Shown piece by piece: positions 2,608 to 26,522 of a stretch of DNA of 64,000 bases. Origin of the DNA: an uncultured bacterium (GTDB lineage: Bacteria; Zixibacteria; MSB-5A5; UBA10806); contig CBEUCH010000015.1 in the NCBI GenBank assembly GCA_965541585.1, forward strand, positions 7,120-71,119, in the 5' to 3' direction. The notes beneath the pieces are model-generated. The model was not told the DNA's origin. It did no database searches and saw nothing but the letters and a program-made list of their open reading frames with translations. Each line of letters opens with the position of its first letter. The stretch's first letter is position 1. Both the position numbers and the translations under genes were made by a program.

Positions 2608-3600
2608 TCAATTGGCGAATCCCATCCGGGTCATCCATTTATCGCTATAGATCTTCGATAAATAACGATCACCCGAATCCGCCAGTATCACCACTGGGAA
2701 TCTAATATCGGGGTCGTCTTGCAGGACCTGTCTGGTCGCCGCAATCACGGCCCCCGATGATCCACCGCAAAAAAGCCCCTCCGATTGGGCAAGCTCCCGG
2801 GTGGTAATGAACGCCTGCCGGTCGTTTATGGCGATGAACCTGTCTACGACATCAAAATCCATAGCCCTGACTATTTTGTCGCTGCCGATTCCCTCAACTT
2901 CATAGTGGAACGGTTCGATCAGCCTGCCGGTCTCAAAATACGTCTTGAATACCGACCCTACGGAGTCGACCGCAACGATTTTGATCGCGGGATTCTTCTC
3001 TTTTAAGTAACGTCCCACTCCTGAAACTGTCCCGCCCGTTCCGGCGCCGGCTATGAGGCAGTCAATCTCCCCGGCGGTTTGCCTCCATATTTCAGGGGCG
3101 GTTGTCGTATAATGGCAGTCGATATTCTCAGGATTATTGTATTGATCCAGATATATAGAATTCGGCAGTTCAGTGGCCAGCCGCTCGGCTGTTTTATAGT
3201 TGCTCTCAGGCTCGTCCGGTCTGGCGGTGTGCGGCGTAATTGTCAATTCCGCGCCGAAAAGCTCCATCATTTCGCACTTTTCCCGGGAGTTTTTATCACT
3301 CATGACTATTCTGGCTCTGAAGCCCTTGGCAGCGCAGATCCAGGAGACTGCAATTCCGGTGTTGCCCGATGTCACCTCTATCACCGTGCCGCCCGCTCTC
3401 AGGCTGCCGTCTTTCTCGGCAGACTCAATCAACCATTTTGCCAGCCGGTCTTTAATGGAGCCGCCGGGATTGAGCATCTCAGCCTTAGCATATATCGTGC
3501 AATTCGTCCCGCCCGCGGTTTTTTCCAAGGGGATAAGCGGCGTATCGCCGATCTGATCCAAGACTGACGATTGCATAATGGTAGCTTGCCGAACCAGCAT
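2608..3600 (-). CDS. cysK: Cysteine synthase (O-acetylserine sulfhydrylase), PLP-dependent. The true start is possibly the internal ATG at 3576.
   Basis: Motifs GDTPLIPL, GGSIKDRLA (PLP lysine motif) and TSGNTGIA are seen, and full-length similarity to CysK/CysM is recognisable. Confidence 0.8.
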   Translation of the reverse strand: MLVRQATIMQSSVLDQIGDTPLIPLEKTAGGTNCTIYAKAEMLNPGGSIKDRLAKWLIESAEKDGSLRAGGTVIEVTSGNTGIAVSWICAAKGFRARIVMSDKNSREKCEMMELFGAELTITPHTARPDEPESNYKTAERLATELPNSIYLDQYNNPENIDCHYTTTAPEIWRQTAGEIDCLIAGAGTGGTVSGVGRYLKEKNPAIKIVAVDSVGSVFKTYFETGRLIEPFHYEVEGIGSDKIVRAMDFDVVDRFIAINDRQAFITTRELAQSEGLFCGGSSGAVIAATRQVLQDDPDIRFPVVILADSGDRYLSKIYSDKWMTRMGFAN

Positions 3601-4034
3601 GCTTCATTATACCTGATATCCGCTTATAGGTTCAACCTAAATTTGCCATAAGACACTGGATTGTAATTCCCCTGACATCGATGATCTCCAAATCCGCTTT
3701 TCCGCTATGGATGGACATCGTTTTCACTTTCTCGGAACCACCCGAACCCGTTCAATTCTGCAACAGCCCTGAATTACTTTATTCCCGAATTCGGACCCGT
3801 TGACCTTTCGATATACGATATCCTCGGCAGGCACATCGATTGAGTTAATAATGCCTGTGCCATAAGTGGGCGGGAAGGTCAACTCCTTTCCACAGCGTAG
3901 AAAACCTCCGACCGTAAAAGTGCTACCAGCCCTGCTTGCTGACCCCTGCAAAGGGTGAGATTCCAATTCGCTCTAATGAGCCTCCAAATTAGCCCGACAC
4001 CTATAGTAAAACGTTAAACAGCACAGAATTGTGA

Positions 4035-6500
4035 ATGAGAAAAATGAAGATATCGTGCATTTTCATCCCGATTTTCATGGTTTCCACAACCGCTGCAGCG
4101 GCTATCCTCAACGTCCCGGGAGAATTTGCGACCATTCAAGAGGCGCTTGATACAAGAGCGATTTCCGACGGCGATACGGTGCTCGTACAACCGGGGATCT
4201 ATACCGAGAATATCAACTTCGGGGGACATAATGTTACAGTCGGCTCTCTGTTTCTTACCACCGGAGACAGATCATATATAACTTCGACTGTAATAGATGG
4301 CGATTCGTCGGGTTCGGTCTTGACCTTTGAAAATGATGAGGACAGCTCGGCCGCTATAATCGGGTTCACCATAACGAATGGCTACGCTGAAAACGGCGGC
4401 GGCATATTATGTATCAATTCCGGTCCTACCATCGAGGATAATATTATCATTGGAAATATCGCCGGCAGGGAGGGTGGAGGAATTTTCTGCAGCTATTCCA
4501 ATCCGGTGATCAGGTATAACAGGATCATGGCAAATGAGGCTGCGCTGGGTGGAGGTATCTGTTATAAGTATTACAATTCCGCAAACGGTGGCGGCAACGT
4601 GGATGATCAATTCATAACGAGGGAAAATTCGCTTCCGTCAATTGCAAACAACATCATCAGCGGAAATTCGGCGGAAGTCGGCGGCGGGATATATTGTCTG
4701 GGATCAAAACTGCTGATTTGCAACAGCACGATCACGGAAAACATAGCAGAAAGAGGAGGCGGTATATTCTGTCTCGATCCGGGCCTGGAGATAACAAGCA
4801 CAATTCTCTGGGGAAACTTAGCTGATGAAGGCCCTCAGATTGTCGGTGCTTCTATCGTAATAAATTATAGCAATATCGAAGGAGGCTGGAACGGTGACGG
4901 GAATATCGATCTCGATCCCTTATTCCGTGATGCCGGGAATGGCGATTTTCGGCTGATGAGCGCAGCTTGCGGCGACTCCGGTGACTCTCCATGTATCGAT
5001 GCCGGCAGCCCGGGTTTCATTGACAGGCTGGTAGATTGTTCATGGGGTCGGGGTACGGTTCTGTGTGATATCGGCGCCTATAGCGGCGGAGGAACGGCTC
5101 CTCCGCCGGAAACCGTTCACCGCGTTCCCTATGATCATCAGACTATCCAGCAGGGAATGAATGCCAGCTCCGATGGTGACACGGTTCTTGTATATCCCGG
5201 CACATATGTTGAAAACATCAATTTCGGCGGCCGTAAGATAACACTCGGTTCTTTATATCTGTTTACGCGAAATTATTCGCATATATCATCGACAGTCATC
5301 GATGGCAACTCCTCCGGGTCGGTAGTGACTTTTGAAAATGGCGAGGATAGCAGTAGCGTTATGGCGGGGTTCACAATAAGAAATGGACTGGCCGAAAACG
5401 GCGGTGGGATTTTTTGTTTCTATTCAGCCCCTCTGATCACCGAAAACATCATAAGCGAAAACAGAGCCAATTCGGAGGGCGGCGGAATTTTCTGTTTTTA
5501 TTCGAGTCCGTCAATAAAGAACAACGTCATTCGAGATAACAGCGCTACCTCCGGCGGCGGCATAAGCTGCCGTTACTCGAATCCTGTAATCAGCGATAAT
5601 CTGATAATCCAGAATGAAGTGTCATGGGAGGGCGGAGGTATATTTTGCCGAGACAACTCGACATCTCTTATCAAATATAATGAGATTCGCGAAAATCGGG
5701 CTGACAACGGCGGCGGGATTTTGTGCAGATATTCCAATCTCTTTATCAGCAATACCGTTATTTCCTCAAATATAGCCAATCAGGGGGGAGGCTTATTCTG
5801 CGTGGGTTCCACTCCATCAATAACCAACCTCGTAATTGCCGGGAATACCGCCGCATCCGGCGGTGGAATATTCTGCCTCAATTCCATGCCCATAATGACC
5901 AATACAATCCTGTGGTATAATGCCGCGGAAGAGGGATCGCAGATTTACGGCGATTCGCCTCTAATCAGATACAGCGACATACAGGGCGGTTGGGAAGGCC
6001 TGGGGAATATCGATCTTGACCCTCTGTTTCGAGATCCCGCAGGCGATGATTTCCACCTTATGGCTATCGCCTGTGGCGACTCCTCCGATTCTCCCTGTAT
6101 CGATACCGGCGATCCAAACGTCTCAGACAGTCTGCTGGACTGTTCCTGGGGCCTGGGAACAACGGACAGCGATATGGGCGCTTATGGAGGCGGAAATATT
6201 CTGACCGGAATCGATGAAATGAATCCCGACGTTTCTCGCCGCCTGGTTCTGGCCCGAAATTACCCCAATCCGTTCAATGTCTCAACATCTTTGGAATATA
6301 ATCTACCCGAGCCTTCTTATCTGACTATTGATATATATAATATCCTTGGCCGGCAGGTAGCTACCATATTCGAGGGCACCCAAGAAGCGGGCAAGCATAC
6401 CATCACCTGGGACGCTTCCGCTTTCCCCTCCGGCGTCTATTTCGCCCGGCTGAAAACAAAGAGACATTCCCGGACCATTAGACTGGTGCTTTTGAAATAA
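4035..6500 (+). CDS. Secreted right-handed parallel-beta-helix (PbH1) repeat protein with a T9SS C-terminal sorting domain. It contains an internal tandem duplication of a 320-aa module.
   Basis: It has a signal peptide and many N-x-x-x-GGGI(F/Y)C beta-helix rungs. The module ...DGDTVLVQPG.Y.ENINFGG... occurs twice (around residues 20-340 and 355-690). The C-terminus YPNPFN...IYNILGRQV...SGVYFARL...LVLLK is typical of a Por secretion CTD. Confidence 0.65.
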   Translation: MRKMKISCIFIPIFMVSTTAAAAILNVPGEFATIQEALDTRAISDGDTVLVQPGIYTENINFGGHNVTVGSLFLTTGDRSYITSTVIDGDSSGSVLTFENDEDSSAAIIGFTITNGYAENGGGILCINSGPTIEDNIIIGNIAGREGGGIFCSYSNPVIRYNRIMANEAALGGGICYKYYNSANGGGNVDDQFITRENSLPSIANNIISGNSAEVGGGIYCLGSKLLICNSTITENIAERGGGIFCLDPGLEITSTILWGNLADEGPQIVGASIVINYSNIEGGWNGDGNIDLDPLFRDAGNGDFRLMSAACGDSGDSPCIDAGSPGFIDRLVDCSWGRGTVLCDIGAYSGGGTAPPPETVHRVPYDHQTIQQGMNASSDGDTVLVYPGTYVENINFGGRKITLGSLYLFTRNYSHISSTVIDGNSSGSVVTFENGEDSSSVMAGFTIRNGLAENGGGIFCFYSAPLITENIISENRANSEGGGIFCFYSSPSIKNNVIRDNSATSGGGISCRYSNPVISDNLIIQNEVSWEGGGIFCRDNSTSLIKYNEIRENRADNGGGILCRYSNLFISNTVISSNIANQGGGLFCVGSTPSITNLVIAGNTAASGGGIFCLNSMPIMTNTILWYNAAEEGSQIYGDSPLIRYSDIQGGWEGLGNIDLDPLFRDPAGDDFHLMAIACGDSSDSPCIDTGDPNVSDSLLDCSWGLGTTDSDMGAYGGGNILTGIDEMNPDVSRRLVLARNYPNPFNVSTSLEYNLPEPSYLTIDIYNILGRQVATIFEGTQEAGKHTITWDASAFPSGVYFARLKTKRHSRTIRLVLLK

Positions 6501-6561
6501 ACTGCCTTATCCTGGGGCAAGTTAGTCTATTGCACCTTTGCCTGCTTGCGCGAATTTCGCC

Positions 6562-6623
6562 AAAAAAAAGCTTGACAAAATACAAGCCTTGATATATTTT
6601 TTTATTAAGGTAATTCAAGGAGG
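6562..6623 (+). promoter_or_regulatory. Sigma70-like promoter plus RBS for the S8 protease gene
   Basis: TTGACA at 6562, followed about 15-17 nt later by TATATT/TATTTT. AAGGAGG lies at 6617-6623, 5 nt before ATG 6629. Confidence 0.3.
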
Positions 6624-6628
6624 TTGTT

Positions 6629-8911
6629 ATGTGCAAAAGGGCAGGTATGAGCATATTGCCGGTATTGGCATTTGTGTCTTTTTGTCATCCCTCCCTATCC
6701 TACGGCTGCATAGACACGCTGTACACTGAACAGGGTGGGGAGTACATAAGGGTGTGGCCCCAGCAACCGGGCGTTGATTATGCTGTAGATCAACTAATCA
6801 TGAAAACGGGTGTAACCGCTATCAAACTCCCTGAAGGAGCAACCGAGGCTGATCTTAAATACTGTAAATTTAATAATGTCGAGTTGAAGAACGCCCTGAA
6901 GAATGCGAAGGCGTACTACATTAAAAAGGTCTTCCCTGATGCCAGCCCAAGTGATACAGTAGCTGTCCTTGACGACTCCACTACAATTCGATTAGCGATT
7001 CTTTCATCGATTTATAAGGTCCTTTTACTTCAAGATTCGGATGTCTATAATGCCATTGATTTGTTATGCCCGCTAGATGATGTAATCTGGGCGGAACCGA
7101 ATGTGATAATGGAGCCTCATAATACACCCAACGATGAATATTTCGATGTCCAGTGGAATCTAAAGGATACGGGCTATGGAATTAAGTGTGAATCGGCCTG
7201 GAATATTACCCAGGGAATTCCCGAAATTAAGATAGGTATGGTCGGTTCGGGGATCGATTTGAGCCACCCGGAATTCGCCGGAAAGATAGCGGGAGGAGGG
7301 AATTATAATGACCAATGCCCGGGCTGCGGTTATGACGACGATGGTTCGGGACACGAAACCAGGGTGGCGGGGATAGCCGCAGCATTAACAAATAACGGCA
7401 ATCCGGGCGGTTTTATAGCGGGCATAGCTGGCGGGTGGAACGGGGGCGGTAACGATATCGGCGCGGTCCTGTATTCGTTAAGGTCTACCGGTAACCCTGG
7501 CCACGATCACTTAGGCGATGACATAGCCCGCGCAATTTATAACGGAGTAAGAAGTCCATTGGACTGCGATATCATTAACATATCCTGGGGCCGTGAGGAA
7601 TACAGCGAGGTGCAACATGCTGCTATCGCATATGCGCAATCAAGAAGAAAAATAACTGTAATTTCTATGGGTAATGAGGGATTTGATGGTGGGCCTCCAG
7701 ATGGCCCTTGCGAGCCTCTTGAGTGCAGACGTGTTTATCCGGCTCAGTTCGATAACACATGGATCGTGGCTGTAGGTTCGTATGGCCAGGATGGTTTTAG
7801 GTGCGAAGATATATACAGGCAAAACTGTGGGAACCATCATTCCAGCTATGGCGGCCAGATTGATATCGTGGCCCCTGGCTATCTCATTCCGACCACTTCA
7901 CCCGGAGGTTACGATCCGATTTTTGGGAAAACCTCCGCGGCGGCCCCGCATGCCACAGGTGCAGCGGCGCTTGTTCTATCTCAAAAATCGCCTTTATGGT
8001 CTGAGGATATGGATTGGATTCTTAAATTTACTGCAGACGATCCCGGCGATGACGGTTACGACGAAGAGCATGGTTGGGGCCGTCTCGATGCCGCCGAGGC
8101 TGTGGCTAAGGTCTCATATCCTTCTTTCTATGACATATTTTACTATTCGGACGATTTCTTCTATTTCGATAGCACCAGCTCCTTCTATGTGGAAAGAGTG
8201 TGGTCGTTTTACAACGGCGATGACTATGACGACGATGATCCCGGGCCAATACCCGACGGCGAGTATACCGCCAGACGCTACGCAGTTTACTTTACGGTCA
8301 ATTATCCCTATCCCTTCTTCCCATATGTTGGCGCCTGGGGTAAAAGACATGCCTATGAAAACGGGGAGTTGGTTCAAACCAAAGGATGGTCGGGCGCCAG
8401 CCCTAACTTACAACGTGGGTATTGCGAGGTAGTTCCCGATACCGAAATCCCTTCCGGATGCGTGATAAAAACCTATACTTACCATATAGACAGAGGCGGT
8501 TACTGGGAATGGCAACCTTTTGATCCGGATTTCGTTCAGTGGGATCCGGTTAAGTTATGCTACGCGGTTTGGGGATTGCCCGCCGGGCACGGCCCCGGAG
8601 GACCCAAGGCAGGAGATACGGACACAGATGAGCCAATCGACTTTTCCCTTAGCTCTTACCCTAATCCGTTTAATAGCAGTGTGTTGATTAAGCTGGATCT
8701 CCCCATTCCTGATTTCGTCTCCGTTGATATTTACAACATCCTGGGGCGAAAAGTGAAAAATTTGATTTTCCAACGGCTCACGGCCGACTCATACGATATT
8801 AGATGGGATGGAACTGACAAGAACGGTGCCAACATTGGTTCCGGCATTTATTTGCTTAAAATCAAGGTTGGCGGTATAACCAGGACCGAAAGGATGGTCT
8901 TGATAAGATGA
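6629..8911 (+). CDS. Subtilisin-like serine peptidase (S8 family) with a T9SS C-terminal sorting domain
   Basis: Catalytic-triad contexts are present: Asp (MVGSGIDLSHPEF), His (GSGHETRVAGIAAA) and Ser (GKTSAAAPHATGAAALV). The C-terminal YPNPFNSS...IYNILGRKV...LIR is a CTD. Confidence 0.75.
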   Translation: MCKRAGMSILPVLAFVSFCHPSLSYGCIDTLYTEQGGEYIRVWPQQPGVDYAVDQLIMKTGVTAIKLPEGATEADLKYCKFNNVELKNALKNAKAYYIKKVFPDASPSDTVAVLDDSTTIRLAILSSIYKVLLLQDSDVYNAIDLLCPLDDVIWAEPNVIMEPHNTPNDEYFDVQWNLKDTGYGIKCESAWNITQGIPEIKIGMVGSGIDLSHPEFAGKIAGGGNYNDQCPGCGYDDDGSGHETRVAGIAAALTNNGNPGGFIAGIAGGWNGGGNDIGAVLYSLRSTGNPGHDHLGDDIARAIYNGVRSPLDCDIINISWGREEYSEVQHAAIAYAQSRRKITVISMGNEGFDGGPPDGPCEPLECRRVYPAQFDNTWIVAVGSYGQDGFRCEDIYRQNCGNHHSSYGGQIDIVAPGYLIPTTSPGGYDPIFGKTSAAAPHATGAAALVLSQKSPLWSEDMDWILKFTADDPGDDGYDEEHGWGRLDAAEAVAKVSYPSFYDIFYYSDDFFYFDSTSSFYVERVWSFYNGDDYDDDDPGPIPDGEYTARRYAVYFTVNYPYPFFPYVGAWGKRHAYENGELVQTKGWSGASPNLQRGYCEVVPDTEIPSGCVIKTYTYHIDRGGYWEWQPFDPDFVQWDPVKLCYAVWGLPAGHGPGGPKAGDTDTDEPIDFSLSSYPNPFNSSVLIKLDLPIPDFVSVDIYNILGRKVKNLIFQRLTADSYDIRWDGTDKNGANIGSGIYLLKIKVGGITRTERMVLIR

Positions 8912-10308
8912 GATTCCTGACTTTTGCCACGGCTCTTTTTACATTATTCTGTTTGTCCCCTCCGTCCTTCGCTGGCTGGACCAACCCGGTCTTTATAGAC
9001 TCCAGCGATAATCTTCTTACGCATGGTATAGAGGCAAGAAACGATTCCATTTTTGTCACTTATGGATCAGATCCCGGCAGATTCGTAAGAAGTCTCGATG
9101 GCGGGCTTACCTGGCAGGATGAATTCGTAAATGCGGAAGGCTTGGGTTGGGATATGTTCAAATTACAAGGAGATACCCTGGCCTTCTTTTTCGGTGCAGG
9201 CCAAAATATACAGTTTTATTTTTCTACTAACTTGGGAGCTACGTGGGAGGAACCCAGAAACTGTGGCGTCTATTCGTTTCTTGACAGCCCCTGGCCTGAC
9301 TTTAGCTCATCGCTTGTGACTATCTGCAGCGCCGAATACCTGTACGAAGTAACCACGATATTCTTGAAGCACTCCACCGATTTTGGAATTACCTGGGCCG
9401 AGCCGGAATCAATCTGGACCTATCCTCGCCCCGTTAACCCGTTTCTTGGTTATTTCTATGACCGCCCCTATATACTTTCCAGCGACTTTGACCTTATGAA
9501 TAATCATTCCCTTATAAAGCTTCTTTTCACCGTAGATGACGGAGAAAGCTGGATCAGTTACGATTCGATATCGGCACCCGGGGCGAACTGGGAACAAAGA
9601 ATGGATGCCTCACCGGGCGGTCAGATGGCCATAGTTTATATGGATTGGTTTTCACAGATGACAGACGAATCCAGCGTACTAGTCTGCCTGTCATCCGACT
9701 CGGGAATGACATGGACACCTCCAGTTGACCTGTCCGTAGCCGATGTAAACAGATATCCGCGAGTAGCCGTATCTGGCGATACAGTAATCGCGGCCTGGCA
9801 GGGAAACGTAGATACAACCGATCAATATAGCTCGGTTCTCCTGCGACGAACATACGATTTCGGGCAAACATGGCAGCCAGTGGAAGTCCTGTCAGAACCT
9901 GGATTAGGGGGGTTGCATCCGACCATAGAATTGGTTAACGGCAAAATACACCTGTTATGCTTCGGGCGATATGGGGGTGTTCCCGGCCTCTACTACCGCC
10001 GCTGGGAGCCGGAAACGGGTATTGAGGAAGAGATAGAAAAACCTGCGCATATATCGCTTCTAACAGCCTTTCCCAATCCCTTCAACGCCTCAACCACTAT
10101 CAGCTACGGTCTGCCTGAGGCTTCGGACGTTTGTATCGAGATCTACAATATCCTCGGCCAGCATGTGGAAACCGTTTTCGAAGGTGGAAAGCCAGCGGGT
10201 AATCACGTTATCACCTGGGATGCTTCCGCTTTCCCCTCCGGCGTCTATTTCGCCTGTCTGAATACTCTGAAAAGCTCGCAAAACATCAAGATGGTTTTGC
10301 TGAAATAG
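8908..10308 (+). CDS. Secreted BNR/Asp-box repeat (sialidase-like fold) protein with a T9SS CTD
   Basis: Its start overlaps the upstream stop (ATGA), and it has a signal peptide. It carries five S-x-D-x-G-x-T-W BNR motifs (SLDGGLTWQ, STDFGITWA, TVDDGESWI, SSDSGMTWT, TYDFGQTWQ). The CTD is FPNPFNAST...IYNILGQHV...SGVYFACL...MVLLK. Confidence 0.6.
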   Translation: MRFLTFATALFTLFCLSPPSFAGWTNPVFIDSSDNLLTHGIEARNDSIFVTYGSDPGRFVRSLDGGLTWQDEFVNAEGLGWDMFKLQGDTLAFFFGAGQNIQFYFSTNLGATWEEPRNCGVYSFLDSPWPDFSSSLVTICSAEYLYEVTTIFLKHSTDFGITWAEPESIWTYPRPVNPFLGYFYDRPYILSSDFDLMNNHSLIKLLFTVDDGESWISYDSISAPGANWEQRMDASPGGQMAIVYMDWFSQMTDESSVLVCLSSDSGMTWTPPVDLSVADVNRYPRVAVSGDTVIAAWQGNVDTTDQYSSVLLRRTYDFGQTWQPVEVLSEPGLGGLHPTIELVNGKIHLLCFGRYGGVPGLYYRRWEPETGIEEEIEKPAHISLLTAFPNPFNASTTISYGLPEASDVCIEIYNILGQHVETVFEGGKPAGNHVITWDASAFPSGVYFACLNTLKSSQNIKMVLLK

Positions 10309-10561
10309 ATAGGCTTATCTTTAGGCGCCTATTCGGGTGTTACATGATCTGCTCCTGAATTATCACATTTTTCTCTTGACATCATATCATATAGATGTTT
10401 ATTATATATGAGAATACATTCGCGAAGTGATTGACAGGTTTTAGGTATGATACTATCAGGGGCTTATGGGGAATTGGCATCTGAGGGTATTGAATATAAC
10501 ATATAGAGATCGATGCAGTTTCGCGGATATTGGCATTCACAGGATGAAAGGAGGTGGTTGA

Positions 10562-10663
10562 ATGGCTCAAAAGCCCGTTAATTTCAATAGGTTGGAAGAG
10601 AAATCACCGAGAAAGGGGGTGCGGAAAATAACCGGGACGCCGTCGATAGCTCCGGACAAATAG
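10562..10663 (+). CDS. Candidate small ORF (33 aa) in the long 5' leader of the next gene
   Basis: A perfect AGGAGG (10549-10554) lies 7 nt upstream of ATG 10562. The product is MAQKPVNFNRLEEKSPRKGVRKITGTPSIAPDK. No homology is recognisable, and it could be a chance ORF. Confidence 0.2.
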   Translation: MAQKPVNFNRLEEKSPRKGVRKITGTPSIAPDK

Positions 10664-10769
10664 ACCCATAAAAACCTATCGGGCCGGAGTCGGGACGCCC
10701 CGGGAAAAGTAAAGAACCGTTGTCATTCTAAAGATAGCATGAACTTGGAAAAAGTCAAGGAGGAATGTT

Positions 10770-11198
10770 GTGAGAACATTCATTTGCCTGATAATAATTG
10801 GCCTGCTGGCCGGGGTATTTGGGATTTTCCCCAATGTAGCGTCGGCTCAAATACAGTGCAAATACAAGGCGTCGATAGATTATGTCGGTATGTGGGGCCC
10901 CTACTACGACGCATGCGCGTCTGAAATGAAGACCACGTTTGAATACAATATTTCTGCTTTTGGTAGTTACAGAGTCATTTGGTGTCAGGTAGATAATACG
11001 CCCTATTCCGAACAGTATTGGGCTGGAGTCATTTGCGAAACTCCTCCATGTTCTGGATCAATAGTGGCGTATACGCATTGTTCAACATCATCTGATCATA
11101 GGTTACTCATGGATGTCGAGACGTGTAGTCCTAATGAGATAGGTTTTGTCTATCCATTTAAGTTGACCGCGGAGTACTACCTGTATACACCCGACTAA
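10770..11198 (+). CDS. Small secreted Cys-rich hypothetical protein (GTG start)
   Basis: It has a signal peptide (LIIIGLLAGVFGIFPNVASAQ), and AAGGAGG lies 6 nt upstream of GTG 10770. There are multiple Cys residues and no recognisable family. Confidence 0.4.
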   Translation: MRTFICLIIIGLLAGVFGIFPNVASAQIQCKYKASIDYVGMWGPYYDACASEMKTTFEYNISAFGSYRVIWCQVDNTPYSEQYWAGVICETPPCSGSIVAYTHCSTSSDHRLLMDVETCSPNEIGFVYPFKLTAEYYLYTPD

Positions 11199-11263
11199 AA
11201 AATCGATAACAGAAGATTACCCCCGGCGGACAAAAACCCGCCGGGGGGATTGAGGAGTGGCAA

Positions 11264-13555
11264 ATGCGTGAAGCTGGAACTGCGATAGTTGTTGTCAAGA
11301 TCTTGATAAGCATACAACTATGCCTAAGCCATGCCGTTGCCGACGAAGGACAGTGGTCAACGGCGGGGCCGGAAGGTGGAAGGATACGGACAATTGCTAT
11401 ACATGCCCAGGATAATCAGCGGCTTTATATAGGCACCATCGGCAAGGGCATATATCAAACAACCAACGGCGGCGAGGACTGGTTTCTGATGGAGGATGAT
11501 TCACTTGATCCGGTTATGCGCGATATCGTATTCCATCCGGCGGCCCCTGAGACGATGTATGCTGGTACATTAAATGGTATGTATAGAAGCTTTGATGAAG
11601 GGAACAACTGGGCCCTGATGAGGCCTCCGGGATACTGGTATAATAATATTAATGACCTCGAAATCCATCCCGTACATCATAATATAATATTTGCTGGGGG
11701 ATCATCCACAAACGTTAAATCAACCGATGGCGGTAATAGCTGGTATGATCTCGACCTACCCTGGGTGGCGGTAGTGGCCATAAGAACCGATCCTCTGCGC
11801 CCCGATACCATCTACCTGGCAACTCAATCGGCCCCGCAGGGCCTCTCGGTTTTCAGAAGCGAGGATCTCGGCGAGAACTGGTATCCGATTCACAACAACC
11901 TCGATAACTACCTCTGGGCCTGGTCCCTGGAGGTCGATCCCGTAAACAGCGATATTCTCTATCTGGGCGGAAGCAGTCATCCTGACGGAACGGGCATCTG
12001 TCTTGAAAAAACGACTGACGCCGGCGATTACTGGTTCGATATAACGCCGCCCGACCTGGCCAGCCCCTGGATATTCGATATAGCCATATCGCCTTCGGAT
12101 CATATGACAATCTACGCCTGCTCGGAAGCGGACGGCATTTTAAAAAGCACGGACGGCGGGGAGTCGTGGCGGGAGATCAACGAAGGCCTTAACGCCGCAA
12201 CGGTTATGGATGCCGAAATAGATCCCGTAACCGGTTTTATCTATATAGGAACGCTCTACTACGGTATTTATCGGTCTACCGACGGCGGCGGGAGCTGGCA
12301 GAAAATCAGCCATAACATTTATAGTTCGGAGTGCAGAGATTTCTCAGTTAATCCTCGAAACCCGGACTCGGTTTATGTTGCCACGATGAACGGCGTATAT
12401 CGCTCCATGGATGGGGCCCGGAGCTGGCAGGAGGTAGATCTGGAGTTCCCGGCTGACGACGAGCGGACCTACGGTGTGGCCATCGATCCTTACGATCCCG
12501 ATTTCATATACGTCAGCTTCTTCAACTATAGAGAACCGATAGAAGGCGGGATTTTCCGTTCCACCGACGGCGGCGACAGCTGGGAGATATTCTCCAACGG
12601 ATTGCCTGATGGCCGCTACTACGGCGACATAGAGGTGGCCGATTATGGAAATGGCACCCGACGGCTCTTTATGGCGGCCGTCGGGCTCTATTATTCCGAT
12701 GACCTGGGTGAAAGCTGGCATCTCTGCCAGGGCGGTTTGCCTGAGGATTTTTATTATGGAACGCTGGCAGTAAGCCCTGTAGATCCCGACTTAGTTTTCG
12801 TAAGCGATTGGGATGACCCCCGCCGGATATACAGATCCGAAGACGGAGGCCAGACGTGGCTCGAGTTTGAGGGGCCCCCCGGAACCGGCCTTTTGAACAA
12901 GATTACCTGCGATCCTGTCGACCCCGATCTGGTCTACTCATGCAGGTATTTCGAGGGGCTATTCATATCGACAGACAGGGGTCAGAGCTGGCAAGACATA
13001 AACAACAATCTGCCCCGGGACGCCGATTACTTCATCCCCTCGGGTCTTGCTATTAATCCTCTGAACCCTCAGAATCTTTATGTAAATGTAAGGTTCCGAG
13101 GTGTGTTTATCTCCTCTGACGGGGGCCAGAACTGGCAGGCTTTTAGCGATGGATTGAACATGGGATATTCCTGGGCGGTCACCTTAATAGCACCGTCGGA
13201 TACGAACAGGATCTGCCTGGCCACCGATTCCCGGTCGGTCTGGTCCATCACCCGAATTCCCACCTCAACCGAAAACGACGATGTTTCACCGAGGGAATAT
13301 TCGATTCTGTCAAACTATCCCAATCCCTTCAATTCTATCACCGTTATAAAGTACTCTCTATTGGAATCCGAGCCGGTTATTCTCTCTATATACAATCTCC
13401 TCGGCCAGAAAGTGACCACACTATTTGACGGTATACAACAGGCCGGCGAACACCACATCACCTGGGATGCTTCCGCTTTCCCCTCCGGCGTCTACTTCGC
13501 CCGGCTGAATACTCTGAAAAACTCGCAAAACATCAAGATGGTTCTGCTAAAATAG
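11264..13555 (+). CDS. Secreted BNR/Asp-box (Ycf48/sortilin-like) beta-propeller repeat protein with a T9SS CTD. This is paralog 1 of a tandem pair.
   Basis: It carries more than a dozen (S/T)xDGGxSW Asp-box repeats (TNGGEDWF, STDGGNSWY, SEDLGENWY, STDGGESWR...). The C-terminal YPNPFNSITVIKY...IYNLLGQKV...SGVYFARL...MVLLK is a CTD. Confidence 0.6.
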   Translation: MREAGTAIVVVKILISIQLCLSHAVADEGQWSTAGPEGGRIRTIAIHAQDNQRLYIGTIGKGIYQTTNGGEDWFLMEDDSLDPVMRDIVFHPAAPETMYAGTLNGMYRSFDEGNNWALMRPPGYWYNNINDLEIHPVHHNIIFAGGSSTNVKSTDGGNSWYDLDLPWVAVVAIRTDPLRPDTIYLATQSAPQGLSVFRSEDLGENWYPIHNNLDNYLWAWSLEVDPVNSDILYLGGSSHPDGTGICLEKTTDAGDYWFDITPPDLASPWIFDIAISPSDHMTIYACSEADGILKSTDGGESWREINEGLNAATVMDAEIDPVTGFIYIGTLYYGIYRSTDGGGSWQKISHNIYSSECRDFSVNPRNPDSVYVATMNGVYRSMDGARSWQEVDLEFPADDERTYGVAIDPYDPDFIYVSFFNYREPIEGGIFRSTDGGDSWEIFSNGLPDGRYYGDIEVADYGNGTRRLFMAAVGLYYSDDLGESWHLCQGGLPEDFYYGTLAVSPVDPDLVFVSDWDDPRRIYRSEDGGQTWLEFEGPPGTGLLNKITCDPVDPDLVYSCRYFEGLFISTDRGQSWQDINNNLPRDADYFIPSGLAINPLNPQNLYVNVRFRGVFISSDGGQNWQAFSDGLNMGYSWAVTLIAPSDTNRICLATDSRSVWSITRIPTSTENDDVSPREYSILSNYPNPFNSITVIKYSLLESEPVILSIYNLLGQKVTTLFDGIQQAGEHHITWDASAFPSGVYFARLNTLKNSQNIKMVLLK

Positions 13556-13742
13556 ATGGGCTTATGTTTAGGCGCTTAATCGGGTGTTACGTAGGCTCGT
13601 CCTGAAATATCACATTTTTCTCTTGACATCATATCATTTAAATGTTTATCATATAACAGAGTACATCCGCGAAGTGATTGACAGGTTTTAGATATGATAC
13701 CTCAAGGATTGCGGATTTTGACCCGCCGGGGGCATTGAGGAG

Positions 13743-16040
13743 TTGCAAATGAGTGAAGCACGATGTTCGCTGGTTGTTGCGACGATTCTTATATGCATAC
13801 AACTATGTTCTGGTCAAGCCATTGCCGATGAGGGTCGCTGGTCCAGCGGCGGGCCGCACGAGGCCAGGGTTCGGACCATAGCCATCCATCCGGACGATAA
13901 CCAACGGATATATATAGGGACTATTGAGAACGGCATCTACCAGACAACGGATGGCGGAGCCAATTGGTTCTTGATGGAGGATGATTCACTTGATATTACT
14001 ATACGCGATATAGTCTTCCATCCGGCGGCTCCGGAGACGATGTATGCGGGAACCCAAAGAGGTATGTATAGAAGCTTTGACGAAGGAAACAGCTGGAGCC
14101 TGATGAGGCCGCCGGGATACTGGTATAATAATATTAAGGACCTCGAGATCCATCCCGTAGATCATGATATAATATTTGCTGGCGGGTCATCCACAAACGT
14201 CAAATCGACCGATGGCGGTAATAGTTGGTACGATCTCGACCTACCCTGGGTGGCGGTAGTGGCCATAAGAACCGATCCTCTGCGCCCCGATACCATCTAC
14301 CTGGCAACTCAATCGGCCCCTCAGGGCCTGTCTGTTTTCAGAAGCGAGGATCTCGGCGAGAGCTGGTATCAAATTCATAATGACCTCGATTCTACCATGT
14401 GGGCCTGGGATCTGGCGATCGATCCAGTCAACAGTAATACCCTCTACCTGGGGGGCAGTAGTCACCCGCAAGGCACAGGCGTATGCCTGGAAAAGACGAC
14501 CGATGCCGGCGAGCACTGGTTCGATATCACCCCGCCGGGACTTGTCAGCCCGTGGATTATCACTATTACGATATCACCGTTTGACCACAGCACCGTATAT
14601 ATCTGCACTGAAGCCACTGGCGTTTTGAAAAGCACGGATGGCGGAGAAACCTGGCGCGAGATCAATGAAGGGCTTGATGCTCGAACTGCGGCGAAAGTGG
14701 AAATCGATTCGGTTACGGCGTATCTCTACCTTGGAACTTACTACCATGGTATCTATCGATCAACGAACGGCGGCGAGAGCTGGCAGAAAATTAGCAATAA
14801 TATCAATCAGGCCAATTGCGAGGATCTATCTATAAACCGGCACGATTCGGACTCGCTTTATGTGGCCAGCATAGGCGGCGTTTACCGTTCTGTTGACGGC
14901 GCTTCAAGCTGGCAGAATGTAGAGCTAGACTTTCCCTTCTACGAGACCAGGGCAAATGGCGTCCAGATTGACCCGTATGACCCGAATTATGTCTACGTAA
15001 GTTTCTACGATTACAGAGGCTTAGGCGAAGGCGGGATATTCCGTTCAACCGATGGCGGGGAGACCTGGGATATGTTTACCAACGGCCTGCCTGAAGGTGG
15101 CTATTACGGCAAATTCGCGGTGGCCGATTACGGAGACGGCTCCCGACGGCTCTTTCTTGGAGCTGTCGGGCTGTATTATTCCGATGATCTTGGCGAGAAC
15201 TGGGCTCTGTGCCAGGGCGGCCTGCCGTCTGATTTGTATTATGGAAGAATTGAGGTAAGCAACGTTGATCCCGATCTAATCTTTGTCTCTGACTGGGGTG
15301 ACCCCAGATTAGTTTACCGCTCCACTGATGGTGGTCAAACGTGGGCTGCTCTATCGAGCCCACCGGGGAACGGAGCTATAAACAGTATCGCCTGCGATCC
15401 TTTCAACTCTGATATCGTTTATGCCTGTAGATCCCATGAAGGAGTGTTCAGGTCCACTGACACCGGGCAGAGTTGGGTTGATATCAGCAATAATCTACCG
15501 AGAGATCCCGATTATTTTATCCCGTCTGGAGTTGCCATTAACCCTCTTAATCCCCAGATTCTTTATGTAAACTCGGCCCGTTACGGCATATTCGTCTCAC
15601 ATGACGGCGGGCGAAGCTGGGAGGATTTCAATGAAGGATTGCGAACCGGATATTCTCATGCCGTTACCGCCATTGCGCCCTCGGACACCAACAGGATTTT
15701 CCTTGCCACGAGCTCGCAGTCAGTCTGGACTATAACTAAGATCCCCACCTCGGTTGATAATGACGATGTTTCACCGAGGGAATATTCGATCCTGTCAAAC
15801 TATCCCAATCCCTTCAATTCTATCACCGTTATACAGTATTCTCTATTGGAATCCGAGCCGGTTATTCTCTCTATATATAATATCCTCGGCCAGCAAGTAG
15901 CTACCATATTCGAGGGATTGCAGCAGGCTGGGGAACATACGCCCACTTGGGACGCTTCCGCTTTCCCCTCCGGCGTCTACTTCGCCCGGATGAAAACCCT
16001 GAAAAGCTCGCAAAGCCTTAAGATGATTCTGCTCAAATAG
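13743..16040 (+). CDS. Secreted BNR/Asp-box beta-propeller repeat protein with a T9SS CTD. This is paralog 2.
   Basis: It is collinear with 11264..13555 over the whole length, with roughly 70-75% identity by eye. The same Asp-box repeats and CTD are present. Confidence 0.6.
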   Translation: MQMSEARCSLVVATILICIQLCSGQAIADEGRWSSGGPHEARVRTIAIHPDDNQRIYIGTIENGIYQTTDGGANWFLMEDDSLDITIRDIVFHPAAPETMYAGTQRGMYRSFDEGNSWSLMRPPGYWYNNIKDLEIHPVDHDIIFAGGSSTNVKSTDGGNSWYDLDLPWVAVVAIRTDPLRPDTIYLATQSAPQGLSVFRSEDLGESWYQIHNDLDSTMWAWDLAIDPVNSNTLYLGGSSHPQGTGVCLEKTTDAGEHWFDITPPGLVSPWIITITISPFDHSTVYICTEATGVLKSTDGGETWREINEGLDARTAAKVEIDSVTAYLYLGTYYHGIYRSTNGGESWQKISNNINQANCEDLSINRHDSDSLYVASIGGVYRSVDGASSWQNVELDFPFYETRANGVQIDPYDPNYVYVSFYDYRGLGEGGIFRSTDGGETWDMFTNGLPEGGYYGKFAVADYGDGSRRLFLGAVGLYYSDDLGENWALCQGGLPSDLYYGRIEVSNVDPDLIFVSDWGDPRLVYRSTDGGQTWAALSSPPGNGAINSIACDPFNSDIVYACRSHEGVFRSTDTGQSWVDISNNLPRDPDYFIPSGVAINPLNPQILYVNSARYGIFVSHDGGRSWEDFNEGLRTGYSHAVTAIAPSDTNRIFLATSSQSVWTITKIPTSVDNDDVSPREYSILSNYPNPFNSITVIQYSLLESEPVILSIYNILGQQVATIFEGLQQAGEHTPTWDASAFPSGVYFARMKTLKSSQSLKMILLK

Positions 16041-16129
16041 TTAGCCTGAACAAGGGCACGCCACCGGTTAAAAAAGTATTGATATTCCCCACAATCTTCT
16101 ATAATATAGAGCCTTAATCGGGGAGAGGT

Positions 16130-17413
16130 ATGAGAATCCTTGTAATTGGAAAAGGTGGTCGGGAACACGCCCTGGCCTGGAAGCTCTCGCAGTCGGACAA
16201 AGCGGAGAAGATCTTCGTGGCGCCCGGCAATGGCGGCATAGCAAAGCTGGCTGAGATTGTCCCCATCGCGGTCGATGATCTGACCGGCCTGGCCGATTTC
16301 GCCGGAAAAAACCGCATAGATCTGACCGTTGTCGGCCCGGAGCTGCCATTGACAATGGGTATCGTGGATATATTCGAGGAGCGCGGCTTGAAGATTTTCG
16401 GGCCCAACAAAGAGGCGGCCGAGATCGAAGGTTCGAAGGCCTTCGCCAAAAACTTCATGGATAAATATCATATCCCCACGGCGCGATTTAAGGTCTTCAC
16501 CAGCCACCTGGAGGCGATTGATTTCACGACATCGGCCAGTTATCCTCTGGTCATAAAAGCCGACGGTCTGGCTGCCGGTAAAGGGGCTGTGATCGTGAAT
16601 GATCCGGACGAAGCCAGATCGCAGATAGAAGAAATTATGGTAGATATGGTCTTTGGCGAAGCGGGTTCCAAGGTACTGGTCGAGGAATTTTTAACCGGGG
16701 AAGAGGTGACAGTAATGGCCCTAACCGACGGCGAGCGGGTTATTCCCATGGCTTCCTCCCAGGACCACAAGAGGATCGGAGAGGGTGACACCGGCCTGAA
16801 TACCGGCGGCATGGGAGCCTATGCCCCTACCAGCATCGTCAACGAAAAGATGCTGAAGCAGATTAACGATGAGATTCTCGAACCTACAATTAGAGGTCTG
16901 GCCGAGCAGGGCCGCAAATATACCGGTGTGCTGTACACCGGGCTGATGATCACCGATAGGGGACCGAAGGTGCTTGAATACAACTGTCGTTTCGGAGACC
17001 CGGAGACCCAGGCGGTTCTTCCCCTGCTCGAGAGTGATCTGGCCCGGATTTTCTCCGATATAGCAGACGGATATTTGAATATTGATGAGATCAAATGGAA
17101 AGACGCTCATGCGGCCTGTGTAGTGCTGGCGTCAAGGGGATATCCTGCGGCAGTGGAAAAAGGCATGGCGATTAAGGGGCTGGATAAGTTAGATTCTAAT
17201 AATTGCGTGGTATTCCATGCCGGCACGGCCAGACCCGGAAATCAATACATCACCGATGGCGGACGGGTCCTGGGTGTGACGGCAGTAGACAGGACTTTGA
17301 GTGGCGCTTTGTCCAGGGCATACGATACAATTAATAATATCCATTTCGATGGCATGCAATATCGGCGCGATATCGGTTGGCGCGCCGGAAAGGTAAACAC
17401 CAGCTATTTCTGA
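16130..17413 (+). CDS. purD: Phosphoribosylamine--glycine ligase
   Basis: It starts MRILVIGKGGREHALAWKL... and is similar to PurD across ATP-grasp lengths. AGGTATG starts the gene. Confidence 0.9.
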   Translation: MRILVIGKGGREHALAWKLSQSDKAEKIFVAPGNGGIAKLAEIVPIAVDDLTGLADFAGKNRIDLTVVGPELPLTMGIVDIFEERGLKIFGPNKEAAEIEGSKAFAKNFMDKYHIPTARFKVFTSHLEAIDFTTSASYPLVIKADGLAAGKGAVIVNDPDEARSQIEEIMVDMVFGEAGSKVLVEEFLTGEEVTVMALTDGERVIPMASSQDHKRIGEGDTGLNTGGMGAYAPTSIVNEKMLKQINDEILEPTIRGLAEQGRKYTGVLYTGLMITDRGPKVLEYNCRFGDPETQAVLPLLESDLARIFSDIADGYLNIDEIKWKDAHAACVVLASRGYPAAVEKGMAIKGLDKLDSNNCVVFHAGTARPGNQYITDGGRVLGVTAVDRTLSGALSRAYDTINNIHFDGMQYRRDIGWRAGKVNTSYF

Positions 17414-23023: not shown

Positions 23024-24712
23024 TTGATGCGGGAGTTTTTATGTTTTTTGATGATCGGTTTTTTTGCGCTCTTTCAGCTGCCATCTTACGTGGCAGCGGG
23101 CGAGATCGATTACCCGAAACCGTTTCGGCTGTCTATTCTGGAGTATCCGAACTCGGATACGCCTGACGATCCCTGGGCCATCATCCTCGATGTGGATAAT
23201 ATCCAGATAAACAGCGACAACAGCGGCCGGGTGCAGAATGAGGAGATGGTCTGCATAAATCCTACCAATACGGCCAACGCTGTGGCCGTCTGGCGCGATT
23301 TCCGTCTCGACTACCGGCGCGTGGGTGTCGGCTATACCTTTGATGGCGGCCAGACATGGCACGATACCCTGCTCTTTGTTCCGCCGCATCCCCGTCAATC
23401 CGATCCCGTTCTGACGGTCGATGATGACGGCACCTTCTACGCCTGTACATTGACGCTTGAATGGTCAATGAACGAGCCGTCCGGAATCTATATTCAAAAA
23501 TCGACCGATGGCGGCGTGAGCTGGTCCGAACCTTATATTGCAATCGATTCCGTTCAAGGTGCTTTCGAGGACAAGCAGTGGATGACTCTCGATAGAACCA
23601 GCGGTTCCACCAATGGCAATATATATATCAGCTGGACACGATTCACCGATATCACCGAAATTCTCTTGGTCTCATCTACCGACGGAGGAGAAACCTATTC
23701 CGATCCGGTGTATGTTTCCGATGAAAACGGCGTTCAATGGTCGGTTCCCACGGTCGGTGTCTGGGGAGACGTATTTGTTGCCTGGTTCGACTATTATCCA
23801 ACCTCCGCGATTTTGATGGATGTTTCCACTGATCAGGGAGCAACTTTCGGGACAGACCGGGTAATCGTTGAAACCAACACCTGGGACGTTAATATCAACG
23901 GCGGCATCTGGGTTTTCCCCTATCCAGCCCTGAACTCCGACGTGAGCTTGCTCTCACCATATCTTGGCAACCTCTACCTGGCCTTTATGGACGAGAACGT
24001 TACAGATATGGATATCTTCTTTATGAAATCCGAGGATAACGGGGCCAGCTGGTCAGAGCCGATCAGGCTCAACGATGATCCGGAACATAACGGCGCAGAC
24101 CAGTTCCATCCCTGGATAACGGTGGACGAGACTGGATCAATCCATGCCATCTTCTACGACAGGCGGATGGATGAGCGAAACAGAAGTTTCGATCTCTATT
24201 ACACCAGGTCCGACGATGCCGGGGAAACCTGGCTGCCGAACGAGCGGATCACCACCGTCTCTTCCGACCCGAACGATGCTCGTCTGGCGGGCCTGATTGG
24301 GGAATATATCGGCCTCGACGCCTGGCAGGGCCAGGTTCAAATGGTATGGACCGATACCAGAAACGGCAACCAGGATGTTTTTTCAGGCAGAATGTCTCGC
24401 ACCGGTATCGAAGACGATATCGTGACCATTCCTGACAGACTGAGGCTCCATATGCCCCATCCAAACCCGTTTAATGCCTCTGTTTCTGTTACCTTTGAGT
24501 CTGATCAGGAGGCGCCGGTTAGTCTCGAGATCGTGGATATACTCGGCCGGAAGACGGCTGAGTTATTCGATGGCGTCTGCCGGACCGGCACAAACAGATT
24601 CGTCTGGGATGGCACCGATATGACCGGCGGCGAGGTCGCCAGCGGAACATATTTCGTCCGTATGAGCGGACCCGACGGTGTGCAGGTTGAGAAGGCCGTG
24701 CTGTTAAGATAA
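23024..24712 (+). CDS. Secreted BNR-repeat sialidase-like protein with a T9SS CTD
   Basis: It has a signal peptide and six BNR motifs (TFDGGQTWH, STDGGVSWS, STDGGETYS, STDQGATFG, SEDNGASWS, SDDAGETWL). The CTD is HPNPFNASVSV...IVDILGRKT...GTYFVRM...AVLLR. Confidence 0.6.
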   Translation: MMREFLCFLMIGFFALFQLPSYVAAGEIDYPKPFRLSILEYPNSDTPDDPWAIILDVDNIQINSDNSGRVQNEEMVCINPTNTANAVAVWRDFRLDYRRVGVGYTFDGGQTWHDTLLFVPPHPRQSDPVLTVDDDGTFYACTLTLEWSMNEPSGIYIQKSTDGGVSWSEPYIAIDSVQGAFEDKQWMTLDRTSGSTNGNIYISWTRFTDITEILLVSSTDGGETYSDPVYVSDENGVQWSVPTVGVWGDVFVAWFDYYPTSAILMDVSTDQGATFGTDRVIVETNTWDVNINGGIWVFPYPALNSDVSLLSPYLGNLYLAFMDENVTDMDIFFMKSEDNGASWSEPIRLNDDPEHNGADQFHPWITVDETGSIHAIFYDRRMDERNRSFDLYYTRSDDAGETWLPNERITTVSSDPNDARLAGLIGEYIGLDAWQGQVQMVWTDTRNGNQDVFSGRMSRTGIEDDIVTIPDRLRLHMPHPNPFNASVSVTFESDQEAPVSLEIVDILGRKTAELFDGVCRTGTNRFVWDGTDMTGGEVASGTYFVRMSGPDGVQVEKAVLLR

Positions 24713-26403: not shown

Positions 26404-26522
26404 TATACTCTCGCAAACGCCGAAAATCCTTGACATTTAAGTAGAATTGTGTATTCATATTAATGGACAGACGTAATTTTCATCTGTGATCGGCACTAGG
26501 ATAAATACCTCGATGGGAGGAT

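Follow-up and report, generated by a model that had tools for sequence, protein, structure and literature searches.

In Porphyromonas gingivalis, established work describes the C-terminal tag of proteins exported through its type IX secretion system (T9SS) as being removed after export. Here, we study the DNA that encodes such tags in a stretch of 64,000 nucleotides (nt) from an uncultured bacterium of the Zixibacteria (assembly GCA_965541585.1, contig CBEUCH010000015.1, positions 7,120 to 71,119 of the forward strand). We call this whole stretch the window and count positions from its first letter. Four T9SS cargo genes in it, g1 to g4, have in common a short and nearly identical stretch of DNA, the cassette, which lies inside the C-terminal domain (CTD) that forms the tag.

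Several described systems resemble this arrangement in part. The KLIKK proteases of Tannerella forsythia are, like the genes studied here, clustered T9SS cargos of different classes with a common C-terminal tag (PMC4404884, PMC9890683). The likeness extends to small open reading frames (ORFs) located directly upstream of cargo genes, which encode potempins in T. forsythia (PMC9890683) and proteins of 132–144 amino acids (aa) before BNR genes in the loci analysed here. The C-terminal domain of the KLIKK proteases is described as nearly identical across cargo classes, whereas only about 43–48 nt (16 residues) are common to g1–g4 and the rest of their tags is a mosaic, with an overall CTD nucleotide identity of 0.65–0.73 between non-paralogous genes. 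Recombination is outside the scope of the KLIKK paper, whereas breakpoints could be mapped between genomes in the present case. In P. gingivalis, the gingipains, HagA, and other surface proteins likewise diversify by homologous recombination or allelic exchange of repeated coding modules (PMC5266723). There, the exchanged adhesin domains are upstream of the tag and their proposed role is antigenic variation, whereas the junction that we describe is inside the tag. Orphan cdiA-CT/cdiI modules of contact-dependent inhibition loci are also arranged in tandem, each after a short conserved coding stretch, at the VENN junction, that is thought to enable homologous recombination and thereby a swap of the sequence behind it (PMC7662968). 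In that system the conserved stretch belongs to a single large gene, where a variable toxin comes after it, and orphan modules stay silent, whereas the modules of the window are complete genes that appear to bear promoters, with the conserved stretch near their 3' end. Finally, concerted evolution of bacterial paralogues by interlocus gene conversion likewise produces segments that resemble each other within a genome more closely than they resemble their orthologues, and a prokaryote survey describes it as rare and long-lasting (PMC6053082). The survey spans many prokaryotic genes, whereas the tracts reported below measure tens of bases and are in a domain common to non-homologous genes. Our literature search found no T9SS paper on natural recombination at the CTD, and a search on Zixibacteria and T9SS found nothing.

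We conclude that the cassette is probably a recombination junction in a tandem array of T9SS cargo modules, which exchange DNA by homologous recombination through crossovers and short gene-conversion tracts. The data show the identity, mosaic tracts, lineage-specific tracts, and, across five related genomes, breakpoints in gene content that coincide with the cassette. Together with identity in non-coding DNA and with paralogues that are closer than orthologues, they support the proposal of gene conversion or recombination between CTD modules that a preliminary description of the window had made from its letters. Homologous recombination between short repeats is well known; the case is a clean new example and brings no new principle.

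A short stretch is nearly identical in the tags of four cargo genes

A search with the pattern quoted in the preliminary description found four copies of a 43-nt stretch, all on the + strand and with at most one mismatch each, where none is expected in shuffled sequence. Copies 1, 2, and 3 have no mismatch and are located at 6404–6446 in the CTD of g1, 10212–10254 in that of g2, and 13459–13501 in that of g3. Copy 4, with one mismatch, is at 15944–15986 in the CTD of g4. The four copies are thus real, and the starts first given for them (6404, 10213, 13463, and 15951) were 0–7 nt off. Copy 1 encodes TWDASAFPSGVYFA. A core of 26 nt (GCTTCCGCTTTCCCCTCCGGCGTCTA) is invariant across the four copies, and such a run of invariant columns in the 240-nt CTD alignment has a probability below 1e-4 by column permutation. 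The stretch common to all four genes measures about 43–48 nt; the 50 to 110 nt initially proposed apply only to pairs of genes, some of which have longer tracts in common. The cassette is found 96 to 49 nt before the stop codon in g1–g4, and therefore not at the extreme end of the CTD. The preliminary view that only the last part of the domain is homogenised needs refining; the last 17 codons of g1 differ from those of g2, g3, and g4 at 20–22 of 51 positions.

We compared the window with five syntenic loci from independent assemblies, which were reached through homologues of g3 and of the subtilase gene S8b (6629–8911). The best named matches are proteins of Zixibacteria metagenome-assembled genomes. 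We refer to the loci of other genomes by numbers preceded by L. The proteins upstream of the cassette belong to different families, as the preliminary description had recognised. The product of g1 (4035–6500, + strand; 821 aa; CTD at 6258–6500) is a PbH/NosD-like beta-helix cargo with orthologues in L010, L011, L014, and L015. The second gene, g2 (8908–10308, + strand; 466 aa; CTD at 10066–10308), encodes a BNR_2 (sialidase-like) cargo with 50% amino-acid identity to the gene at the same position in L014. The last two genes encode Sortilin-Vps10/BNR cargos and are paralogues with 73% amino-acid identity: g3 (11264–13555, + strand; 763 aa; CTD at 13313–13555), whose body is colinear with the BNR gene of L009 (71%), and g4 (13743–16040, + strand; 765 aa from a TTG or 763 aa from the ATG at 13749; CTD at 15798–16040), which is the positional orthologue of the purD-adjacent BNR genes in L010, L011, and L015.

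The four CTDs exceed the curated cut-offs of both profiles used in the search and were classed as type A T9SS sorting domains: 36.8–41.5 bits with Pfam PF18962 (cut-off 27) and 38–46.8 bits with NCBIfam TIGR04183 (cut-off 23), g1 having 41.5 and 46.8 bits, respectively. The matches stop 2–8 residues short of the C-terminus. Three more genes of the window have a CTD and lack the cassette: S8b, a BNR_2 gene of 562 aa (23024–24712), and g6 (26505–27839). We saw no component of the T9SS machinery (SprA/Sov, PorV, PorU, and others) among the searched ORFs of the window. The peptide ASAFPSGVYFA, encoded within the cassette, is rare. A scan with a pattern degenerate at third codon positions returned six loci in the genome collection and two in the metagenome collection, and the peptide occurs in the CTDs of only 4 of ~185,000 species-representative genomes and of 2 metagenome loci.

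The identity holds at synonymous sites

The preliminary description had stated that the copies are identical even at synonymous sites, and the codon counts agree. When we considered the positions where g1–g4 all encode the same degenerate amino acid, the codon was invariant at 10 of 13 positions in the cassette and at 6 of 26 in the remaining CTD (Fisher p = 0.0019). When the six gene pairs are pooled, an amino acid common to both genes is encoded by the same codon in 67 of 78 cases in the cassette and in 121 of 214 in the rest of the domain. The pair g1–g2 gives 12/13 and 12/34, respectively, and we judge the latter value to be about equal to chance under the weak codon bias of the genome.

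Codon bias was considered as the cause of the identity and rejected, given these counts of invariant codons and the weak preferences of the genome: the window has a G+C content of 45%, and no amino acid with four- or six-fold degeneracy has a codon used in more than 36% of the cases. A structured RNA was also rejected. The Rfam covariance models gave no match at E ≤ 1 over 3600–17000, and the four copies have no conserved fold in common, with z-scores of −0.3 to −1.8 and a different structure in each copy.

The nearest relatives of the tags switch from segment to segment

We divided the DNA encoding the CTD into five segments: S1 (nt 1–78), S2 (79–120), S3 (121–144), S4 (145–192, the cassette), and S5 (193–243). 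In g1–g4, the nearest relative of the CTD switches segment by segment. The S1 of g1 is closest to the PbH orthologues, its S2 to g4 (4 differences in 42 nt), and its S5 to the PbH gene of L014 (4/51). In g2, S1 is closest to the BNR gene of L011 (9/78), S2 and S3 to the PbH gene of L011 (1/42 and 3/27), and S5 to g3 (3/51). The S1 of g3 is closest to the BNR orthologues (0–1/78), and its S5 to g2. The 5' segments follow orthology, as seen for S1 between g1 and the PbH gene of L010 (7/78) or between g3 and the BNR gene of L010 (1/78), whereas the cassette and the segments 3' of it do not.

A GENECONV-like permutation of polymorphic sites identified significant tracts between g1 and g4, g2 and g3, g2 and g4, and g3 and g4 (p ≤ 0.001). 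The tract between g2 and g3 (10141–10440 and 13388–13687) is 84% identical and runs about 165 nt past the stop codons into non-coding DNA. The one between g1 and g4 (6332–6376 and 15872–15916, encoding YNILG..VATIFEG) has 3 mismatches in 45 nt (permutation p = 0.0007), against 10–14 differences in 42 nt when either gene is compared with g3. The 5' part of the CTD differs between g3 and g4 at 2 of 78 nt.

The bodies of these two paralogues contain a further block of high identity. Codons 101–200 (11564–11863 and 14049–14348; 300 nt) are 92% identical, with third positions 76–88% identical, and most other windows of 25 codons are 57–79% identical. The block has the appearance of a further conversion tract located outside the tag.

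Cassettes are compared within and between genomes

The cassettes of the window differ from each other at 2–7 of 48 positions. L010 is ~81% identical to the window, and 10–14 of 48 positions differ between its orthologous cassettes and those of the window. The other genomes have tracts of their own: in L010, the PbH and BNR genes have identical tags over the final 51 nt, and a stretch of 36 nt is common to the tags of L011. The cassette of g4 is 4–7/48 from its paralogues in the window, against 8/48 from its orthologue in L015 and 14/48 from that in L010. Its flanks show the opposite pattern, with 0–2 differences in 78 nt to the orthologue in L015, and an S1 that is 2–3/78 from the orthologues (2/78 for L015). 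The segment is thus closer within the genome than to its orthologues while its flanks follow orthology, which is the pattern of concerted evolution. The cassette of g1 is an exception, being only 1/48 from its orthologue in L015. Overall, the comparisons indicate overwriting of the cassette tract inside each genome and no preservation of it from one genome to the next.

Taken as a whole, g4 has an uneven similarity to its orthologue in L010 (13743–16040 against 6943–9234 of L010), in which blocks with an identity of 0.88–0.97 alternate with blocks of 0.52–0.67. The housekeeping genes downstream are mostly 0.75–0.92 identical between the window and L010. Some CTD segments are nearly identical between genomes, such as S1 between g3 and the BNR gene of L010 (1/78) and S2 between g2 and the PbH gene of L011 (1/42). 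These patterns could reflect exchange between lineages or synonymous constraint.

Gene content changes at the cassette

The cargo modules between the PbH gene and purD differ among the syntenic loci, and the breakpoints are at the cassette. This interval contains a BNR gene in L010, a small ORF and a BNR gene in L011, S8b and a BNR_2 gene in L014, and a small ORF, a divergent BNR gene, and a BNR gene in L015. In the window, it contains S8b and g2 (module M1), a small ORF and g3 (M2), and g4 (M3). We define a module as the last 17 codons of one tag with the stop codon, followed by an intergenic region with a promoter-like site and by the next cargo gene or genes, up to two thirds of the way through the tag of that gene.

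The clearest junction is seen with L015, an independent assembly that is ~95% identical to the window. The two are colinear at 94.7% up to 6457, directly after ...TTCGCCCGGCTGAAAAC in g1. After the cassette of its PbH gene, L015 continues like g2 from the cassette on: the DNA from 10212, in the cassette of g2, to 10760 is colinear with the DNA 3' of the PbH cassette in L015, and is ~95% identical over 10370–10760. Hence, L015 lacks exactly 3808 nt, which is the distance between cassettes 1 and 2, and the CTD of its PbH gene is a hybrid, in which the match to g1 gives way to a match to g2 at 41 nt before the stop codon. An indel of one repeat unit, with a single hybrid repeat in the shorter allele, is the pattern of an indel mediated by direct repeats. 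A deletion in the lineage of L015 is a simpler reading than a gain, because the adjacency of PbH and S8b and the same tag end are also present in the more distant L014.

The other copies of the cassette also coincide with changes in relatedness. The identity between the window and L015 rises from ~70% to ~88% at cassette copy 3, and then to 95%–100% from 13790 on. From ~75 nt before its stop codon, g4 is colinear with the end of the CTD of the BNR_2 gene of L014 and with its flank on the side of purD. L010 and L014 have flanks that are 90%–91% identical and differ in their modules (BNR versus S8b and BNR_2); the right junction is 66–60 nt before the stop codon, in the core of the cassette, and the left one is 40 nt before it. 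The tag end of g1 and the DNA downstream of it are of the L014 type, and the tag end of g3 with the following intergenic region is of the type of the PbH gene of L010. Identity profiles computed in bins agree with breakpoints at the cassette for g1, g3, and g4.

We also considered a plain tandem duplication of g3/g4 as the whole account of the array and rejected it: g3 is placed outside the pair formed by g4 and the BNR gene of L010 (it is 70.6% identical to the latter, against 81%). The small ORF upstream of g3 accompanies it, as is also the case in L009 and L011.

Homologous recombination and its alternatives

A mechanism based on homologous recombination would start from the strong constraint on the cassette, which seems to encode the strand motif under the tightest constraint in the type A CTD (..TWDASAFPSGVYFARL..). 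With its amino acids thus fixed, the cassette is the longest uninterrupted identity between diverged tags, and exact stretches of 26–38 nt between non-paralogous tags occur only at this place. Homologous pairing in Escherichia coli needs a repeat of about 20–30 nt, and the exact stretches of the cassette are long enough by this figure. The CTDs whose exact identity does not exceed 17 nt (S8b, the 562-aa BNR_2 gene, and g6) are not homogenised, though S8b is inside the array. Recombination of the RecA type would start and be resolved in the cassette. Crossovers between the cassettes of different genes would add, delete, or replace whole modules, while heteroduplex repair and short conversion tracts (~20–50 nt, sometimes 300 nt) would keep the cassette nearly identical, so that it would stay recombinogenic. 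The dependence on RecA, whether each event was a gain or a loss, and any selective benefit are inferences and not observations. The preliminary description had seen here a mechanism that shuffles secretion tags among cargos. Our results support the exchange, but what is reshuffled is mainly the whole module and not the tag alone.

Some observations weigh against this account or narrow it. The junction between g2 and the DNA downstream of it is known from the present assembly alone. When genomes are compared, the 3' half of the cassette (TTCCCNTCCGGNGTCTATTTCGCCCGGCTG) has a same-codon fraction of 0.65–0.95 (F56–K66), against 0.3–0.5 elsewhere in the CTD. A constraint at the nucleotide level, or a slowly changing family consensus, may contribute to this half. 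The use of preferred codons at critical residues or GC-biased conversion may also contribute to the conservation of the cassette, whose G+C content at third codon positions is 0.69–0.81, against 0.53–0.59 for the genes. The synonymous sites of the 3' half are thus conserved in other genomes as well, and the identity is not recent throughout, contrary to what had been supposed. The 5' half (GAY GCT TCC GCT) has an ordinary synonymous identity between genomes (0.32–0.49) and yet is identical within the window, and its identity is therefore specific to the window. The differences between cassettes (1–4 in 44 nt) are similar in degree to those of the duplicated intergenic DNA (13 in 94); therefore, the identity could in large part go back to the building of the array and not to ongoing conversion. 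Finally, the CTD arrays of the non-syntenic loci L004, L005, and L006 have no long stretch in common (at most 18 nt), and the process is therefore not general to all CTD arrays.

The alternative that survives best, which we consider unlikely, is purifying selection on the nucleotide sequence itself, with the cassette acting as an mRNA element, as a signal for translational pausing or accuracy, or as the binding site of a regulator in the mRNAs of T9SS cargos. Such selection would fit the high same-codon fractions between genomes, which concern F56, S58, V60, Y61, F62, A63, L65, and K66, as well as L30 (0.90), and it would fit the raised G+C content at third positions and the fact that several codons of the cassette are the commonest ones of their amino acid in the genome. 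Against it, the orthologues in L010 differ at 10–14 of 48 positions, including amino-acid changes, and g4 differs at 8 of 48 from an orthologue that is 95% identical. The Rfam and folding results given above, the merely ordinary conservation of the 5' half between genomes, the extension of tracts into non-coding DNA, and the breakpoints are likewise not accounted for by this selection.

An assembly artefact would be either a chimera of strains with PbH-M1 and PbH-M2-M3 joined at the cassette, or a set of copies homogenised by the assembler. The window does look like an L014-type left part and an L015-type right part joined at the cassette of g2, where the junction is found in a single assembly. 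Exact identity between copies spans only 26–38 nt, however. This is less than ordinary reads and less than the final k-mer of common metagenome assemblers, and misjoins are not to be expected from repeats no longer than 38 nt. A contig crossing them therefore needs reads that span both unique flanks. The copies also retain private variants (GAC/GAT, TAT/TAC, ACC/ACT) and were therefore not collapsed. Furthermore, PbH-M1 was assembled independently in L014 and M2-M3-purD in L015, the loci L011 and L012 from two different samples have identical CTD sequences, and the tracts common to modules (g1–g4 and g2–g3) indicate that sequence was exchanged. For these reasons we find an artefact quite improbable.

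Simple common descent, in which one tag was recently duplicated onto four genes whose flanks diverged fast with no later exchange, is in our opinion very improbable. All CTDs are homologous, and the cassette encodes their most constrained peptide, which should diverge most slowly. Yet, the synonymous sites of the flanks are saturated between g1 and g2 while those of the cassette are nearly all identical (12/34 versus 12/13), the 5' segments follow orthology when the cassette and the 3' segments do not, and the four-gamete pattern at the GAY and TAY sites needs recombination or recurrent mutation. We give hardly any credence to a site-specific system (integron-like, shufflon-like, or driven by a retroelement) that would recognise the cassette, even if the modules are bounded by a short conserved sequence and have a promoter-like site each, since a non-exhaustive search found no match to a recombinase, integrase, or reverse transcriptase among the searched ORFs of the array region and the genes called in four syntenic loci, the cassette has neither a hairpin nor an inverted repeat, the junctions vary from 170 to 40 nt before the stop codon as fits homology-driven exchange and not a fixed cleavage site, and the copies differ by C/T at third codon positions and not in an adenine-specific manner.

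Implications for the evolution of cargo repertoires

Related bacteria have widely different repertoires of T9SS cargos, and tags do not always fit across species: with a CTD from T. forsythia, a P. gingivalis protein was not properly secreted (PMC11285876). Homologous recombination at a junction inside the DNA encoding the tag would be a simple route by which whole cargo genes are gained, lost, or replaced along with their promoter regions. It would also be a route by which one tag variant comes to be present across unrelated cargos, all recognisable by one machinery, and the cell might benefit by keeping all its cargos suited to that machinery. For annotation, it means that the ends of the tags are unusable for inferring the orthology of cargos. 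More tentatively, and with some doubt on our part, the core of the CTD might be a general docking point in this Zixibacteria-like lineage, where cargo genes can be stacked and exchanged with their own promoters and are traded between strains by homologous recombination alone. If so, these exchanges would also ensure that every tag fits the secretion machinery of its own cell.

Organisation of the modules and neighbouring genes

Module M1 (6447–10211, + strand) opens with the tag end of the g1 type (KTKRHSRTIRLVLLK) and continues with intergenic DNA that has a promoter-like site at 6572–6600, with S8b, and with g2 up to its cassette. The CTD of S8b is its own and divergent. L014 has the same order of PbH, S8b, and BNR_2 genes, and its tag end is of the same kind, with 4 differences in 51 nt. 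The stop codon of S8b overlaps the start codon of g2 at 8908–8911 (ATGA), and stop and start codons also overlap in L014 (12238–12241). This arrangement suggests that S8b and the BNR_2 gene are co-transcribed and translationally coupled.

The intergenic region downstream of g2 (10309–10470, + strand) aligns with 13556–13720, with 13 differences in 94 columns, and has a promoter-like site, TTGACA-N18-TATTAT, at 10376–10405 (score of 11/12 in the promoter scan). The region between g3 and g4 (13556–13742, + strand) has such a site at 13623–13652 and is orthologous to the region between the PbH and BNR genes of L010 (16 differences in 94 columns). The sites at 6572–6600, 10376–10405, and 13623–13652 are the three best sigma-70-like matches of the region, and each is located ~70 nt 3' of the stop codon of a cassette gene; each module therefore appears to carry its own promoter.

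The small ORF of module M2 (10770–11198, + strand), upstream of g3, encodes a Cys-rich protein of 142 aa with a hydrophobic N-terminus. Such Cys-rich ORFs of 132–144 aa with a hydrophobic N-terminus are found directly upstream of a Sortilin/BNR gene in four genomes, that of the window and those of L009 (665–1099), L011 (9536–9934), and L015 (7048–7467). A Pfam search with the 142-aa ORF and its counterparts gave no match.

Upstream of g1, alignment with the S8a genes of L010 and L011 revealed the relic of a lost subtilase gene, S8a (3720–3840, + strand), of which only the 5' part of the CTD is left, ending just after the ATCCTCGG patch. S8a is intact in L010, L011, and L014. Downstream of the array, a second PbH-type cargo appears to be split into a part with Chlam_PMP repeats and no tag (25043–26176) and a part with a CTD (26505–27839). 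The orthologue of g1 in L011 (6595–9073) is also split, into 474 and 353 aa. These split genes may be frameshifted or decaying cargo genes. Further downstream, a cluster of defence or mobile-element-like genes (37860–61964) comprises, among others, a sigma-54 activator that has a Cas_NE0113 domain, a D5-primase-like gene, the type I restriction-modification genes HsdM and HsdR, an AAA_13 ATPase, and a UvrD/RecD-like helicase of 1304 aa.

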